Positions 1,673-32,000 of a DNA stretch of 64,000 bases are shown here, piece after piece. The notes under the pieces are model-generated. The model saw only the letters and a list, made by a program, of their open reading frames with translations, ran no database searches and was not told where the DNA came from. This DNA comes from an uncultured Acidobacteriota bacterium (GTDB lineage Bacteria; Acidobacteriota; Terriglobia; UBA7540). The translations under genes and the position numbers were made by a program. The stretch covers positions 512,001-576,000 of the forward strand of contig CAWDSK010000006.1 in the NCBI GenBank assembly GCA_963804995.1, read 5' to 3'. Position 1 is the first letter of the stretch, and each line of letters opens with the position of its first letter.

Positions 1673-2890
1673 ATGACCTCACAGCACCAGACTTCCACCC
1701 GTTACCTGATGGCGACGGCGTGCGCAGGCCTGTTTACATTCGGTGTGATAACTTCACTTCTAGGCGCAATTCTGCCGGAGTTGAGTGCGCGCTCCAATTT
1801 TGATTTGACCCGCAGTGGAACGCTTTTCAGTTTTCTCTATTTCCCGCAAGTTCCCATGGTCTTCCTGGCGGGGCCCTTGATCGACCGCTTTGGCAAAAAG
1901 CTTGTACTGGCCGTGGGTTTTATGTGCAGCGCCGCGGCGCTGGTGGGGATGGCTTACGCGCCCAGCTACGCGGTGCTGGGAGCGCTGCTCGTCATGCTCG
2001 GCCTGGGCGGCAGTTCCGCCATGGCCGCCGCGAACACGCTCATCCCCGACCTTTACCCGCAGAATCCCTCTTCCGCGCTCAATCTGGCAGGCATCTTCTT
2101 CGGCGTGGGAGCAGTCTTCTTCCCCTGGCTGGTGGCGCTTATGACGCGCTGGTTGGTAAGGCTGATGGCGCCCCCGATGGTGCTGGTCACAATCCTGTGG
2201 TTCATTGCGTTGCTGGTCGGACTGGTGGCCGTGGTGGCGTTGATGCAGAAGTTTCCCCCCGCGAGCATGGCGGGAGGATTCGACTGGGAGCGCGCCCTGT
2301 CGCTGGCGACTAATCCCGCTGTCATTATCCTTGCCTGCGTCCTATTCTTCTATTCCGCTTTGGAAATTTCCACCGCTGGCTGGATTCGCACTTTCCTGGA
2401 GAAAGATCTGGCCGTTTCCGCCCGGAATTCCACCCTCCTGCTGACGACTTTCTGGATCATGATGATGTTGGGCCGGCTGATTGCCAGTCAAGTCGTCAAG
2501 CGAGTTCGCGGGCCGCAATTGTTGCTGGGATGTTCCCTGGGGGCCCTCGCGGGACTCCTGCTCATGGCGCTGGCGCCCAACCTGTGGATAGCCACCGCCG
2601 GCATTATTCTCTGTGGGCTCTCCTACGCGCCGGTATTTCCCACCACCGCGGGGACCGCCAGCACCTACTTTGCGCGCATCTTTGGGACCGTGTTCGGCAT
2701 GCTCATGACTCTCGCCCTGCTGAGTGGGGCGGTGATTCCTCCCGCCATCGGATACGTCGCCCAACACCAATCGGTACGAGCCGGCATCTGGATTCTGGCG
2801 GGCATCGCGGTCCTGCTCCTGATTACGCAGGGGATCTTCAACAGTTACGAGCGGCGGAAACTGCTCCCCGCGGCGCCGGGACCGGCATGA
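1673..2890 (+). CDS. MFS transporter (sugar/fucose permease-like)
   Basis: About 12 hydrophobic segments; motif A-like GPLIDRFGKK. Confidence 0.88.
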   Translation: MTSQHQTSTRYLMATACAGLFTFGVITSLLGAILPELSARSNFDLTRSGTLFSFLYFPQVPMVFLAGPLIDRFGKKLVLAVGFMCSAAALVGMAYAPSYAVLGALLVMLGLGGSSAMAAANTLIPDLYPQNPSSALNLAGIFFGVGAVFFPWLVALMTRWLVRLMAPPMVLVTILWFIALLVGLVAVVALMQKFPPASMAGGFDWERALSLATNPAVIILACVLFFYSALEISTAGWIRTFLEKDLAVSARNSTLLLTTFWIMMMLGRLIASQVVKRVRGPQLLLGCSLGALAGLLLMALAPNLWIATAGIILCGLSYAPVFPTTAGTASTYFARIFGTVFGMLMTLALLSGAVIPPAIGYVAQHQSVRAGIWILAGIAVLLLITQGIFNSYERRKLLPAAPGPA

Positions 2891-3048
2891 GTGGATAATA
2901 TTGAGAGTTAACGGCTCACAGCTTGTGGTTATGCTGTCAAGCTATCGTCGCGCGGACCTCCTATGCTTGCCCGGGCAGGTCAGGACCGACAGATTGAGGC
3001 GCACGGCTATCGAAGGTGTGAAGTGGAGGGACACGCGCGAAATATGGT

Positions 3049-3300
3049 TCAATTATCACCTGCCATGTATCGCTGGATGACTTCACGTTTTGCGGGCGTC
3101 AAGCCGAGGAATGCCAATCCTACTTTTTTGCCCGAGTGGATTATATAAAGGACCTTGGCCCGCACCTTCTGTGCCCCAATCAGGGGCATCTCGCGCTCGG
3201 CGAAATGCGCTTTTCTGGGCTCTCGGGGCACAGGATGCGCAGGTCGCGAGATTTGGGGCATCAGGAATTCCAGTTCCAGAACCTGACCCACCTCGACTCC
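3049..3300 (-). pseudogene. PilZ-domain C-terminal fragment
   Basis: VGQVLELEF...VRAKVLY...VGLAFLGLT..REVIQRY resembles a PilZ barrel; no clear start. Confidence 0.4.
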
Positions 3301-3322
3301 ACCCGTAGGGCGGGCACTGCGA

Positions 3323-4180
3323 TTACGCAGATGGCTCGTTCTCGGCAAGGTACATGATGCCCTGCCGGTAGAGTTCCGGGGAGGGTCCCTTGGAACTGTG
3401 AACGACACGGGCATCGACAAAAACGTTCACCGCCGTCGGTGAATAGGGAACCGCAACTTGGATGTAGGATCCGGTGCGGTAGGGCCGGCGGCTGGTGAAA
3501 CGCAGCCCGCCGTGGGAGATGTCCTCAGTGGTCGCCACATCGTCGTCCGACCCAGCCTGGCGAATGCAGACGGGTATCTCCGCGGCCACCCGGCGACCCC
3601 TCCGTTGGGGCTTGGCGAGGGGGGGAGGCGCGGCGGCCACCAGCCTCGCGGGATTCGCCGGCCCTAACTCTGGCCGCTTCGTCGCCTCTTGCTGTAACTC
3701 CAGCCACAGTGTAGGCCTCCCACACTTGTCGCAACTGAGGGAAAGCTGCCGATTGGCGTTGTAGACTGCCAGTTCCACCGAGTCAAGATGCACAATCTTG
3801 CGCGTCCCGCAGACCTTGCACGAAAGCAGAGCTCGCCCGGCAATGTCGTTGTCAGGCGGCAACTCCGGGAAAAAAACATCCCAGAAACCCACCATAGGTT
3901 TCCGGAACACCACGCTGAGAATCTGCAGACCTGCCTGCTTCCCGATTTGCCCCGCCACGTGGAATTCCGCCTCTCGGGGAACAGGGGTCCGGCGACGGCG
4001 GATGCTAATCAACTGACCGGGAGCGAGCGCGGCCTTCAGAGCAACCGCCGCCCCGTGCCGAGCCACCGTCACGGTGGTGGTATCTTCTGAAAATGGATTT
4101 CCTGAAGCGTCGGTTCCGGACACTGAAACCGGCAGGGCGATTGAGACACGATCACTACGACGTTTGCTGGTCTCTGCCAT
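3323..4180 (-). CDS. Tandem PilZ-domain protein with central Zn ribbon
   Basis: RRSDR and RRGRR RxxxR motifs, DISHGG, CKVC and CDKC. Confidence 0.8.
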   Translation of the reverse strand: MAETSKRRSDRVSIALPVSVSGTDASGNPFSEDTTTVTVARHGAAVALKAALAPGQLISIRRRRTPVPREAEFHVAGQIGKQAGLQILSVVFRKPMVGFWDVFFPELPPDNDIAGRALLSCKVCGTRKIVHLDSVELAVYNANRQLSLSCDKCGRPTLWLELQQEATKRPELGPANPARLVAAAPPPLAKPQRRGRRVAAEIPVCIRQAGSDDDVATTEDISHGGLRFTSRRPYRTGSYIQVAVPYSPTAVNVFVDARVVHSSKGPSPELYRQGIMYLAENEPSA

Positions 4181-27241: not shown

Positions 27242-28558
27242 ATGGATAACGATACTCTGAATATTTTGGACAAGCGGACGAACACGACTTATGAAGTGCC
27301 GTTTCACAAGGGCACCATACGCGCCATGGATTTGCGGAAGATTAAAACCGGGCCCGAGGATTTCGGCCTGATGACTTACGACCCGGCGTTCATGAACACG
27401 GCTTCGTGTCACAGCGCCATTACTTTCATCGACGGCGACAAAGGCATTCTGCGCTACCGCGGGTATCCCATCGAGCAACTCGCGGAGAAGTGTACGTTCC
27501 TTGAGGTCGCATATCTGCTTCTCGCTGGTGAGTTGCCTACGTCCTCCCAATTAAAGGACTGGGTCAACAATGTCACTCACCACACCATGTTGCACGAGAC
27601 GACCAAGAAGTTTCTGGAGGGTTTCCGTTACAACGCCCACCCCATGGGAATGTTCATCAGCACTGTCGCGGCGCTCTCCACGGTTTATCCGGAAGCCCGG
27701 GATGTGCATGACGCCGCCACGCGGCAACTCCAGATTTTTCGCCTGATCGGCAAAGTTCCCACCATCGCCGCTTACACGTACCGCCACGGCCTGGGCTTCC
27801 CCTACGTCTATCCCGACAACGACCTGAGCTATGCCGAAAACTTCATGAACATGTTGTGGAGGATGGCGGAGCCCAAGTACGTGGCCAATCCCGCCCTGGC
27901 GCGCGCGCTCGACATCCTCTTCATCCTGCACGCCGACCACGAGCAGAATTGCAGCGCCAACGTGATGCGTTCGGTGGGCAGTTCCCAGGCCGACCCGTTT
28001 GTGTCGACGGCTGCGGCGGCGGCAGCGCTCTCCGGCCCCTTGCACGGCGGCGCCAATGAAGAAGTGCTGAAAATGCTTGACGAGATCGGATCGAAGGACA
28101 AGGTGCCGGCTTACATTGAAAGCATCAAAGCGGGCAAGGGAAAGTTGATGGGCTTCGGCCACCGCGTCTACAAGAACTACGATCCCCGCGCGCGCATCAT
28201 CAAGCAGGCCGCCGAAGAAGTCTTCGAGGTCACCGGCAAGAATCCCAAGCTCGAAATCGCCCTGGAACTGGAACGCATCGCGCTGCAAGACGATTACTTC
28301 GTCAAGCGCAAGCTCTATCCCAACGTGGATTTCTACTCCGGCATCATCTACCAGGCCATGGGATTCCAGCCGGAAATGTTTACGGTGCTGTTTGCCATTC
28401 CGCGTACGGCCGGATGGCTGGCGCAATGGCAGGAAATGATCCAGGACCCCGAACAGAAAATTGCCCGCCCACGCCAGATTTACACCGGCTACGACGAGCG
28501 GAATGTTGTTCCCATGGAGAAGCGCGGGGAGGCGAAGGAAGCAGGCAGTGGGCGGTAA
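27242..28558 (+). CDS. gltA: Citrate synthase
   Basis: HADHEQN, GPLHGGANE, GFGHRVYK and YPNVDFYSG motifs. Confidence 0.97.
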   Translation: MDNDTLNILDKRTNTTYEVPFHKGTIRAMDLRKIKTGPEDFGLMTYDPAFMNTASCHSAITFIDGDKGILRYRGYPIEQLAEKCTFLEVAYLLLAGELPTSSQLKDWVNNVTHHTMLHETTKKFLEGFRYNAHPMGMFISTVAALSTVYPEARDVHDAATRQLQIFRLIGKVPTIAAYTYRHGLGFPYVYPDNDLSYAENFMNMLWRMAEPKYVANPALARALDILFILHADHEQNCSANVMRSVGSSQADPFVSTAAAAAALSGPLHGGANEEVLKMLDEIGSKDKVPAYIESIKAGKGKLMGFGHRVYKNYDPRARIIKQAAEEVFEVTGKNPKLEIALELERIALQDDYFVKRKLYPNVDFYSGIIYQAMGFQPEMFTVLFAIPRTAGWLAQWQEMIQDPEQKIARPRQIYTGYDERNVVPMEKRGEAKEAGSGR

Positions 28559-28688: not shown

Positions 28689-28824
28689 CGTTGACGCCTT
28701 CGATCATGCGGCAACAGGAGAGTTGGTAGCCACGGTCAGCGTTTTTCTGACCGTGGGTTCTTCCCTTGATGACGAGGGCATAGCACGCAGGGACAGTTCA
28801 ACCCCGAGCGGAAGCGGCGGGTGA

Positions 28825-29001
28825 GGCGGGGGTAGCCACGGTTAACGATTTTCTGACCGTGGGTTCTTCTGGTGGTGGTCGGGTTACAGCAAACTTACTT
28901 TGGACAGGGCAACGGTAGCCGCGTGTTCCATCCAGATTGACGACCTGCCGCTGGAGCATCGGGCATGAGAAAAGCCCACGGTCAGAAAAACGCTGACCGT
29001 G
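28825..29001 (+). repeat. REPIN family G (gtagccacggtcag...ctgaccgtgg), right arm split by the IS
   Basis: Arm ends ...ctgaccgtg at 29001 and resumes gctacccgc at 30716; extra arm at 28725-28760; inverted homolog at 31801-32000. Confidence 0.88.
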
Positions 29002-29078
29002 ATGTTATGAAACGGCGATGCCTCCTCGGGTCCAGGTAGACTGGACCTGGGAAAGAAATTCAACGAGGAGGCAAGACG

Positions 29079-30119
29079 ATGATACCGGTTGCGTCGGACG
29101 TTCACAAGGGACGTTGTTGGATGGCGATGATTCCGCCCGGGGAAGACGTAAAAATGCTGGAGCCGATCGAGTGCACGCGGGAAGCGTGGCGGCAGCGCTT
29201 GGCGGAGCTGCCGCCGGATGCGGAGATCGCTCTGGAAGTTTCCACCAGCGGTTATTTTGTGATGAGTGTGCTGGAAGAGGCGGGGTGGCGGGATCGGGCG
29301 CACTGGGTGCACACGGCGGGGATCGACAGCTTGCGCAAGCAGAAGTCGGACCGGCTGGACACTCGGCGCTTGGTGAAGAAACTGGCGGTGCACGACGTGG
29401 AGCCGCTACCGGAGGCTTGGTTTCCGCCCCCTTCCATCCGGGAATTACGCCTGCTGGCGCGGCAGCGGTGCGGCCTGGCGCGGCTGCGGGCCCAGACGAA
29501 GAACCGCGTCAATAGCCTGCTGGAGATGCACGGGCTGCGACCGCAGCGGTGCGTCTTCACCGCCAAGGGGCGAGCCTGGATCCAGCAGCAAGCGCTCTCG
29601 TCGGCGGCGCAGTTGTGTTTCGAGCGGATGTTTCGCCTGTACGATTTTCTCAGCGCCGAGCGCGAAACCAGCGAGGCGGAACTGCTGGCGGCCGCCGCGG
29701 CTTTCCCCCAGGTGGCGCTCCTGCAGACCATCCCCGGCCTCGGGCACATGCTGGCGGCGGTCATCTGGAGCGAGATCGGAGACCTGGCGCGTTTCGACTC
29801 CGCCGACGCGCTGTTGAACTATACCGGCTTGGTGCCCAGTTCCTACGATAGTGGCGAGGTTTCGATTCATGGTCCGATCACCCGCCAAGGTCCGGTCTGG
29901 TTGCGCTGGGCCTTGATCACCGCCGCCAACGCCCTGACGCGCAGCAAGAGCCCGCTCGGCCAGCGTTACTGGCACCTGCGGCGCTGCCACAAGCACCCCA
30001 ATGTGGCCAAGACGGCGGTGGCGGGTTCGGTCGCCCGCTGCGTTTACGGAGTTTTGAAACACGGAGCACCTTTCCAGGCCGAACGTTGGGGCCGGAGAGC
30101 CGGCAAGCTGGGGCAGTAA
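29079..30119 (+). CDS. IS110-family DEDD recombinase/transposase
   Basis: SDVHK, LEVST and KSDRLD (DEDD); TIPGLG; GLVPSSYDSG with the catalytic Ser; ITRQG..LRWAL; GAGGAGG RBS. Confidence 0.95.
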   Translation: MIPVASDVHKGRCWMAMIPPGEDVKMLEPIECTREAWRQRLAELPPDAEIALEVSTSGYFVMSVLEEAGWRDRAHWVHTAGIDSLRKQKSDRLDTRRLVKKLAVHDVEPLPEAWFPPPSIRELRLLARQRCGLARLRAQTKNRVNSLLEMHGLRPQRCVFTAKGRAWIQQQALSSAAQLCFERMFRLYDFLSAERETSEAELLAAAAAFPQVALLQTIPGLGHMLAAVIWSEIGDLARFDSADALLNYTGLVPSSYDSGEVSIHGPITRQGPVWLRWALITAANALTRSKSPLGQRYWHLRRCHKHPNVAKTAVAGSVARCVYGVLKHGAPFQAERWGRRAGKLGQ

Positions 30120-30690
30120 GCCTGAGGTAGCCATGGGGAAACCAAACCCGAACCGTGATGAGGAACTGCCCCTCGAACAACAGACTGAGGCCTGCGGGAG
30201 ACCCCCGCAGTGATCCTGTAGAGATGACTGGAATCGGCGCATCCGCCGGCGACATCGTGGCAAGCGACAAGCGCCCACGTCCTGGGCTCCGAGTTTCAGA
30301 AAGGGCCGAGCGAGAATTCTTCTCCTCGGCCGCGGTCGGGGGTGCGTGGCCTGGGGATTTCTCTTGGGCCACCGCACCACCGGCAGGCCAGGGTGAGAAC
30401 CTGGCCCTACCCCAGGGAGGTGTTTTAACTTAGCCGTGCAAGTTTCGGAGTGGCGAACTCGGCGAGGATCGTAATCGGCCGGGCGTTTTCTCAGGCATGG
30501 GGAAGCTATCGTAACCACCAGGAGGAGGAGCGATCATCCCATCGCCCCCCTGCTCGTCGTTACGATGAGCCTCCCACCGGCTATTCCTCGGCGGGTTGCT
30601 CGCCAGCAGAGCCCGCTTCCGCTTCGCCGGCTGACTGCCATTCTGAAACTAGGTGCAGACTTCTGTCAATCGGCACCTAAAATCCGCTTG
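30111..30690 (+). ncRNA. Predicted bridge/seek RNA in the 3' non-coding end
   Basis: Internal loop with GGTAGCCA and ACCGTG matches the target; AGAGATGA and GACATCG match the circle junction; many hairpins; exact ends unknown. Confidence 0.75.
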
Positions 30691-30734
30691 ACACGGCATC
30701 GCGGTTTCAGAGATGGCTACCCGCTGACGACGCA

Positions 30735-31800: not shown

Positions 31801-32000
31801 AGCGGGTAGCCACGGTCAGCGCTTTTCTGATCGTGGGCTTTTCTCAGGCGCGATACCCCAATGGCAATCGCACGTAATCAATCTGGATGGGGCACGCCGC
31901 CACCGTTGCCTTGTCCAAAGCGAAATTGTTGTAACTCGACCACCGCCAAAAGAACCCACGGTCAGGACTGGTCGCCGCGGCGACACCGTGGCTACCCCGC
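31801..32000 (-). repeat. REPIN family G, inverted copy
   Basis: Arms and spacer match the reverse complement of 28825-29001 plus 30716-30725. Confidence 0.85.

Follow-up and report, generated by a model that had tools for sequence, protein, structure and literature searches.

How does an insertion sequence (IS) come to sit at the same short site in every one of its copies, and can the address be read from its own DNA? The question is raised by positions 29002-30715 of a 64,000-nucleotide stretch of an uncultured Acidobacteriota genome (the window, by which we mean the whole stretch). Here an insertion sequence of 1714 bp, with one copy of its TG core counted, interrupts a repeat that resembles a repetitive extragenic palindromic (REP) sequence. 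Judged from its sequence, the element is very probably an IS1111-type member of the IS110 family, whose DEDD/serine recombinase is guided by an RNA encoded after the transposase gene and slightly overlapping it. The element and its ends are defined, the first loop of the RNA has a conserved fold, and both target guides in this loop covary with their targets. By analogy with IS621 and ISEc11, the RNA would be made, bind the recombinase and bridge the circular donor to the target.

RNA-guided transposition in IS110 and IS1111 elements has been known since 2024, and REP targeting, an RNA 3' of the gene, a reversed guide order and natural retargeting have all been described. What is new here is a member from the Acidobacteriota, a phylum without a studied example. 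The known mechanism remains unchanged.

Ends, target site and recombinase

The ends of the element can be read from its copies. A search of the genome with a 1713-bp query finds four full-length copies at 100% rounded identity. In all four, the left junction is ACCGTG followed by ATGTTATG (28996-29009 in the window) and the right junction is CAGAGATG followed by GCTACC (30708-30721). The left flank of one copy diverges further out, and the base following GCTACC is C or A among the copies. Hence, the target is ACCG-TG-GCTACC and the circle junction is AGAGA-TG-ATGTT, which is what an initial annotation, made from the letters of the window alone, had assumed. The empty target 12-mer, ACCGTGGCTACC, belongs to a REP-like palindromic repeat and occurs 87 times in the genome, compared to 0 times for the reversed control. 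Since four copies share the same junctions and the empty 12-mer is common, the element inserts at a TG that target and ends have in common, without duplication. Subterminal inverted repeats of 14 bp, matching at 13 of 14 positions, lie 7 nt in from each end.

The transposase has 346 residues. It matches the Pfam families PF01548 (DEDD_Tnp_IS110; 34.7 bits, cut-off 29) and PF02371 (Transposase_20; 79.2 bits, cut-off 21.3) as well as the NCBIfam model NF033542, 'IS110 family RNA-guided transposase' (177.7 bits, cut-off 140). Its only solved relatives are the transposases of IS621 (8wt6, E 9.4e-13) and ISCro4 (E 9.2e-12). All of 26 aligned homologues share residues D7, E53, D91, D94 and S258. S258 aligns to the serine of ...YESG... 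in IS621 chain 8wt6_A, and the N-terminal alignment to IS621 is not significant by itself. We infer that the five residues correspond to D11, E60, D102, D105 and S241, the catalytic residues of IS621 (PMC11208158). Plasmid-borne IS110-family genes encode proteins at most 31% identical to the transposase.

Within the family, the architecture points to the IS1111 group. There are 596 nt of non-coding DNA downstream of the gene (30120-30715) against 77 nt upstream (29002-29078), and residues 250-259 of the protein read GLVPSSYDSG. As described in PMC11187229, the marks of IS1111 are a longer non-coding region downstream of the transposase gene (tnp), a GL-P----S(t)G motif and a transposase of 330-350 residues; subterminal inverted repeats of 7-17 bp are a further mark in PMC11208160. 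By the criteria of these two sources, the downstream non-coding region, the subterminal repeats and the GLVPSSYDSG motif thus place the element in the IS1111 group.

Target guides change with their targets

The initial annotation proposed that the guides of a bridge RNA are readable downstream of the gene, with two target guides, GGTAGCCA and ACCGTG, in a loop closed by GGGCAGT and ACTGCCC. Read directly, both guides are where it had placed them. The stem is present as well (30111-30117 and 30165-30171, where the 30171 given earlier is an end coordinate), and its helix extends to 8 bp. GGTAGCCA complements TGGCTACC and ACCGTG has the sequence of the top strand, with an overlap at TG. The 5' guide therefore complements core and right target while the 3' guide copies left target and core: the right-then-left order that the annotation had remarked on is real. 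In IS621 the left target guide lies 5' and the right target guide 3' (PMC11208160). In IS1111-type seekRNAs it is a hallmark that the complement of the top strand lies 5' of that of the bottom strand, opposite to the order in IS110 types (PMC11187229). The reversed order has thus already been published as a difference between IS1111 and IS110 (PMC11187229).

How often would such motifs arise by chance? We made 20000 dinucleotide-preserving shuffles of the 596-nt non-coding region (30120-30715). GGTAGCCA occurs in 83 of them, ACCGTG in 2062 and both together in 7. For the two segments proposed to read the donor, the counts are 222 shuffles for AGAGATGA and 2087 for [GA]ACATC[GA], the pattern around GACATCG. 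Chance falls far short of explaining three of the four motifs, and especially their joint occurrence; GACATCG is not significant alone.

Relatives were drawn from Acidobacteriota/Terriglobia contigs of metagenome-assembled genomes, from the same taxonomic order and from metagenome contigs, the last retrieved with a 26-protein alignment as the query. In the same order, 39 of 137 genomes match at E 1e-25, the window's own genome included, and two unpublished genomes among the 39 were left out of later use. A phylum-wide search at E 1e-40 returned only the window's own genome among 401, with a threshold too strict and a sample too thin for this to be evidence of absence. A covariance model of the RNA (R1), built from 13 sequences, has 89 matches in 92 sources, which amount to 82 distinct sequences. 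In the window, the 5' part of the matched region lies within the transposase gene, over its final 34 nt.

Guides were read from alignment columns and flanks from the first strict matches to the element ends. This choice replaced a false right end at an internal motif, TTTTTCAGGCATG, in relatives L017, L121 and L093, and discarded far downstream right-end matches for L054, L013 and L132. The initial left ends of L033, L032b and L116 were also false, and a stricter pattern was applied.

Covariation of guides with targets among homologues was the check that the annotation itself had suggested, and both target guides track their own flanks. Right flanks were found for 67 of the 89 rows. Here the right guide forms 8/8 Watson-Crick pairs with its own flank in 51 rows, 7/8 in 9 and fewer in 7, that is, at least 7/8 pairs in 60 of 67. 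Left flanks were found for 78 of the 89 rows, with 6/6 identities in 51, 5/6 in 18 and fewer in 9, hence at least 5/6 in 69 of 78. These rows are related by descent, so per-row counts overstate independence and a permutation per guide is fairer. The 89 relatives carry 11 distinct 5' (right) guides and 15 distinct 3' (left) guides. With one row per distinct guide, the right guides score a mean of 7.18 compared to 4.40 for permuted flanks, and the left guides 5.33 compared to 3.51; 0 of 20000 permutations reach these values.

Individual variants illustrate the pattern. The guide pair CGTAGCGC/GGTCTG sits in the target GGTC-TG-CGCTACG, ACATGTCA/AGAATG in AGAA-TG-ACATG and GCCTGTCA/GGAATG in GGAA-TG-ACAGGT, while the right guide GATTGCGC is found in TG-CGCAATC. 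The core is TG in all guide variants. Right guides that end in CA pair both core bases and six target bases (42/42 rows with a right flank); those that end in GC pair the second core base only and seven target bases (23/24 rows).

A natural control exists in the same genome. A second IS type, present in four copies, has the same ends, 59% protein identity and 66% DNA identity over the gene. Its site is GCTC-TG-CGCCAGC in a different repeat, and the genome has 22 empty copies of this 13-mer. At identical RNA positions, the second type carries GCTGGCGC in place of GGTAGCCA and GCTCTG in place of ACCGTG. Between the two types the stems change compensatorily and GTAGAGATGA is unchanged. One relative, L017, joins a second-type scaffold to the first-type guides GGTAGCCA/ACCGTG, and its left flank is ACCGTG.

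The helices that frame the guides are conserved in the same way. In a 13-sequence MAFFT alignment, 98.1% of the cells of the 25 specified pairs are paired. Changes on both sides occur at 11 pairs compared to 5.6 in shuffles, and 0 of 500 shuffles reach 11; when partners are slid by 1-3 columns, at most 3 pairs show them. Within the target loop, compensatory changes affect 5/8 pairs of the outer stem, 1/3 of the 3-bp stem and 1/3 of the inner hairpin. RNAalifold on the 89 sequences recovers only the three first-loop helices, with compensatory changes at 9 of 13 pairs. Since the guides change with the flanks and the stems change compensatorily, the target guides are real. A long-range closing helix (columns 6-8/205-207 of the 13-sequence alignment) has one-sided changes only and was not adopted.

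Table 1. The insertion sequence and its parts, in window coordinates.
Feature	Position	Strand	Basis or remark
Left target half ACCG and core TG, in REP-like repeat	28996..29001	+	ACCGTG here in all 4 genomic copies
Insertion sequence	29002..30715	+	4 full-length copies, identical junctions
Left subterminal inverted repeat GAAACGGCGATGCC	29009..29022	+	13/14 positions match the reverse complement of 30695-30708
Transposase gene, 346 aa, IS110-family DEDD recombinase	29079..30119	+	Pfam, NCBIfam and structure matches
Bridge/seek RNA, limits of the covariance model	30086..30304	+	R1 match of 204.6 bits; 88 further matches in relatives
5' hairpin GCCGG-AGAG-CCGGC	30091..30104	+	Helix 1; conserved, without compensatory change
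Target-binding loop	30110..30172	+	Outer stem 30110-30117/30165-30172; 3-bp stem 30121-30123/30161-30163; inner hairpin 30136-30138/30147-30149
Right target guide GGTAGCCA	30126..30133	+	Pairs top strand TG+GCTACC
Left target guide ACCGTG, then ATG	30152..30160	+	Same as top strand, so pairs bottom strand; ATG equals the first bases of the IS left end
Stem-loop separating the two loops	30188..30217	+	AGG 30188-30190/CCU 30215-30217 around a GC-rich hairpin; helix 5, GC to AU in 6/13
Left donor guide (probable) AGAGATGA	30220..30227	+	Equals the circle junction over 8 nt
Inner hairpin of the donor loop	30234..30249	+	Helix 6, AU to GC in 5/13 sequences
Candidate right donor guide GACATCG, tentative	30251..30257	+	Pairs TGATGTT with 5 Watson-Crick and 2 G-T pairs
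Conserved 3' accessory module	30479..30715	+	Starts with right-end-like GCGTTTTCTCAGGCATG; 75% identity to the second IS type; 35 distinct sequences aligned
Promoter-like site: TTGACA, 18 nt, CAGAAT	30640..30669	-	10/12 positions match; inside the module
TTGACA, possible -35 of a junction promoter	30688..30693	+	Conserved in the 35-sequence alignment
Right subterminal inverted repeat GGCATCGCGGTTTC	30695..30708	+	Read from the sequence
Right target half GCTACC	30716..30721	+	Read from the sequence, identical across copies

The donor side and competing readings

If the element works like its studied relatives, the RNA would be made from the transposase transcript or from a junction promoter. 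For the latter, a possible -10, GATGAT, would arise only with joined ends, at an 18-nt spacer from the TTGACA in the right end. The RNA would bind the recombinase, and its first loop would read both strands of the REP target around TG. AGAGAUGA in the second region would read the joined ends of the excised circle, with GACAUCG as a possible, weaker partner for the top strand of TG-ATGTT. Strand exchange at TG would insert the element.

On the donor side, the left guide is the better defined. AGAGATGA reads across the joined ends, from the final five bases of the right end through the core to the opening base of the left end. It lies where the initial annotation had put it, and its equality with the circle junction holds. 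It would pair with the bottom strand, in the position and polarity of the left donor guide of IS621. Among the rows that reach the site, 86 of 87 have AGAGATGA, and the preceding base takes all four values. From its position, length and invariance, we take AGAGATGA to be the likely left donor guide.

Several observations weigh against the main reading, an IS1111-type element guided by this RNA. The single-sequence fold is no more stable than that of shuffles (z = -0.31), and the Rfam covariance models gave no family match, with hits at chance level only (E >=0.07, far under the gathering scores). The RNA is a predicted one, as are its ends and its binding to the protein. The right target guide pairs in two registers, one base apart relative to the scaffold. 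Poor fits occur in 7 of 67 right flanks and 9 of 78 left flanks, including L109/L029, L032b, L112, L082, L094, L127 and L092. L109 and L029 are the same element, with six right-flank pairs plus one G-T; L094 and L127 also fit poorly on the right, and the right flank of L112 resembles the expected one minus two to three bases.

Some of these loci are unusual in themselves. The contig of L032b holds two truncated copies head to head, and L082 carries a tandem pair of right ends. The flanks of L092 belong to different target classes, the left one to the first class and the right one to the second, which may reflect a rearrangement between two elements.

The remaining points against concern the donor side. 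All 89 relatives share the same ends, ...AGAGATG (AAAGATG in two) and ATGTT..., which makes donor covariation unreadable. Three single-base changes, in the guide of L104 and in the right ends of L059 and L032a, are uncompensated. GACATCG, which the annotation paired with TGATGTT by means of two wobbles, has the claimed site and pairing, and a CGGCG/CGCCG hairpin (30235-30239/30244-30248, loop CATC) does separate it from AGAGATGA. Its specificity is another matter: some 10% of shuffles contain the motif and, of 84 relatives that have the left end in common, only 14 keep [GA]ACATC[GA]. In the other 70 of 84 it is replaced by AAACTCG (24 rows), GAATCCG (7), AAGCTCG, GAACCCG and others. Across the 77 rows with seven letters in this column, positions 1, 2, 6 and 7 are pairable in at least 73, with mismatches in 57 rows at position 3 and in 56 at position 4. 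We name GACATCG as right donor guide only tentatively, with more doubt than confidence. The family may rely on very short core pairing, or on the subterminal repeats and the protein. Of the 'bispecific, reprogrammable' RNA in the annotation, the target half has held up, as the loop is naturally reprogrammed (11 + 15 guides); the donor half comes down to an invariant AGAGATGA and a weak GACATCG.

A scan of the whole 3' non-coding region for a better right donor guide found no conserved partner. A segment in the second scaffold about 255 nt into the RNA, which sometimes reads AACATCA, GACATCA or AGCATCA, was rejected because it is part of ...ACAT(A/C/T)AAGGAGG and reads ACATAAA in most members. 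A donor-loop handshake, GACATCG then TGG with target CCG, was rejected as well: it suits the element in the window, not its relatives.

Could the RNA be antisense? Between the guide RNA and the right end lies a module of ~240 nt, whose core of ~75 nt (30560-30635) hardly varies. Relatives with a right end at least 340 nt after the RNA have the module (40 rows), and it is absent where this distance is about 150-200 nt (20 rows). Its first bases, GCGTTTTCTCAGGCATG, resemble a degenerate right end. Solo copies are absent from this genome, where the module is found only inside the eight IS copies, apart from one weak 35-nt match. On its minus strand the module holds TTGACA, an 18-nt spacer and CAGAAT, with hexamers that are conserved and a spacer that varies in 35 relatives. 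This promoter-like site, a match to the consensus only, would drive an antisense transcript through the conserved core toward the guide RNA.

RNA libraries bear on the question to a limited extent. Small shares of matching words occur in 20 RNA runs (16 studies) out of 24 runs listed, and these shares are uninformative on habitat. In two of four metatranscriptome runs examined there is one contig each from a relative of ~92% identity: the contig in X2 is 572 nt long at depth 41.9 (30048-30619), and that in X3 is 553 nt long (30067-30619). Neither run has a contig on the transposase gene from about 29260 to 30047, where missing cover is not evidence of silence. This pattern hints, if weakly, that RNA from the 3' non-coding region is more plentiful than RNA from the gene. 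As support for a guide RNA the contigs are open to two further objections: they carry no strand or ends and may be DNA, and the minus-strand site at 30669-30640 could equally produce them.

Hence the first alternative, in which the library transcript starts at this site, runs left over module and bridge RNA and regulates the element. The conserved hexamers fit it, as does the common end of the strandless contigs at 30619, and ISPpu9 has antisense and accessory small RNAs (PMC12288879). Yet an antisense transcript leaves the covariation of guides and targets unexplained, which needs a plus-strand reading of the loops, and its promoter is a consensus match. It is also compatible with a guide RNA rather than a replacement for it. 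As an alternative we consider it unlikely.

In runs X1, X2, X3 and X5, many short contigs whose own flanks differ from one another cover 30577-30625, with a summed depth of 142-343. This pile is not a measure of expression because a 45-nt core is common to many diverged elements, which occur in wetland and peat communities.

A second alternative keeps the target guides and gives up the donor guides. The RNA would be a target-only seekRNA, whose first loop picks the target while the protein recognises the IS ends via the 14-bp repeats; AGAGATGA and GACATCG would be scaffold or regulatory, and the RNA would not be bispecific. The predominant short seekRNA, 82-96 nt long, holds only two target matches as described in PMC11187229 (lengths from PMC13604230). 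The rarely kept right candidate, the uniform ends without donor covariation and the three uncompensated differences between AGAGATGA and right ends would also be expected, and the inner hairpin of the second loop is missing from the shortest relatives. A scaffold segment does not, however, have to equal the circle junction over 8 nt as AGAGATGA does, at the rate in shuffles given above, or to stay invariant while the preceding base varies. AGAGATGA also lies just 3' of a helix with compensatory changes, like the left donor guide of IS621, and four positions of the right candidate stay pairable in nearly all rows. Furthermore, Durrant et al. report donor-complementary loops in IS1111 members (PMC11208160). 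We regard a target-only RNA as distinctly unlikely.

Finally, it is scarcely credible that the guides are functionless relics, pieces of REP target and IS end copied into the non-coding region by past recombination: REP-like repeats are abundant nearby (four intact target 12-mers around the element, all inside 3 kb) and the degenerate right end at the start of the module indicates that end duplications occur in the family, but relics would neither track flanks across 11 and 15 distinct guide variants nor hold fixed loop positions framed by compensatory helices, and one guide that complements the target and another that copies it, overlapping at the core, are what two-strand recognition requires. 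Guide covariation and compensatory stems thus already contradict this explanation.

Known systems, possible guide extensions and minor observations

A guide RNA that reads target and circle junction agrees in many respects with what has been described. Like the seekRNA elements ISEc11, ISPa11, ISKpn4 and ISPst6 (Siddiquee et al. 2024, PMC11187229), the element has its non-coding region downstream of tnp, subterminal inverted repeats, a transposase of ~340 residues with the GL-P----SG motif, a folded RNA with a top-strand complement 5' of the bottom-strand complement and an overlap at the insertion point, and natural retargeting among related elements. The first-loop module of ~70-90 nt is comparable to the short seekRNA (82-96 nt), and both loops together, ~175-215 nt, to the long seekRNA (148-172 nt; PMC13604230, Table 1). 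In contrast to the tested seekRNA elements, the host belongs to the Acidobacteriota/Terriglobia, the protein is as distant from plasmid-borne IS110-family genes as stated above, the target is REP-like with a TG core, and an extra module of ~240 nt is present.

With IS621 (PMC11208160, PMC11208158) the element shares the recombinase family, a REP target and a 2-nt core contained in both guides. In both systems, two segments of an internal loop, set around an inner hairpin, read the two strands of each DNA. The left guide of the donor loop is the 5' one and copies the top strand, and the guides are followed by one or two further bases that fit the recombination product, in the manner of handshake guides. 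Unlike in IS621, the RNA lies 3' of the gene instead of 5', the order of the target guides is reversed, the core is TG and not CT, the subterminal repeats are long, and the right donor guide is poorly defined.

Other IS110-family elements also target REP sequences, among them ISPpu10, ISPa11 and ISPpu9 (PMC11208160, PMC12288879); ISPpu10 and ISPa11 are IS1111-group elements with predicted bridge RNAs (PMC11208160). ISPpu9 has a hitch-hiking accessory small-RNA module, ssr9, which is similar to a miniature inverted-repeat transposable element and is delimited by a second copy of the ends downstream of tnp (PMC12288879). The 3' module described above resembles it, but has no solo copies in the genome.

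The guides may extend beyond the target. After the left target guide, 88 of 89 rows have AT, and the window has ATG. The left end also begins with ATG, so that left guide and following bases together agree with 8-9 nt of the integrated left junction. After the right target guide, 85 of 89 rows have T; where the guide ends in CA, this T would pair with the final A of the right end. The extensions resemble the handshake guides of IS621 (PMC11208158, PMC13626964). Because the ends are invariant, a handshake is not distinguishable from conservation of the scaffold.

Guides that extend into the IS ends, two registers of the right guide and a module of ~240 nt that regulates the RNA would, if read jointly, be undescribed in IS621-type and tested IS1111-type elements. 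We find this joint reading rather unlikely. If it is true, the target guides fit the integrated junctions (8-9 nt) better than the empty site (6-8 nt), and handshake-like pairing would take place on the bottom-strand guide too, possibly favouring excision or product capture. The module, with its own antisense promoter, may then regulate the guide RNA.

As this case shows, raw sequence is enough to read the target guides of an IS1111-type element, and covariation alone can check them. One scaffold carries at least 82 distinct natural RNA variants, with 11 right and 15 left guides, all with core TG. Such a natural reprogramming series is usable for engineering IS1111-type recombinases.

The element lies in a REP-rich intergenic region after a citrate synthase gene (window 27242-28558; PF00285, E 1e-138). 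Intact target 12-mers near the occupied one are found at 28725-28736, 28831-28842, 31805-31816 and 31985-31996, within REP-like palindromes (GGTAGCCACGGTCAGCGnTTTTCTGACCGTGGG).

The left end contains CCTCCTCG (29021-29028), the exact complement of CGAGGAGG (29064-29071). The latter is the Shine-Dalgarno region, 8 nt upstream of the transposase start. Pairing between the two segments could occlude translation of read-through transcripts. CCTCC is kept across the left ends of relatives.

Two copies of the second IS type stand out. In one (L024, G000:C3), an insertion of ~1.1 kb at about 2621-3722 splits the guide RNA between the loops; it has terminal inverted repeats (TTGATTCCTGCATAATAAATGTCC...) and a TA duplication and looks like an IS630/mariner-type element. 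In the other (L005, G000:C6:1008221-1009956), which is 1736 nt long compared to 1735, the transposase match falls into two overlapping pieces, which suggests a frameshift.

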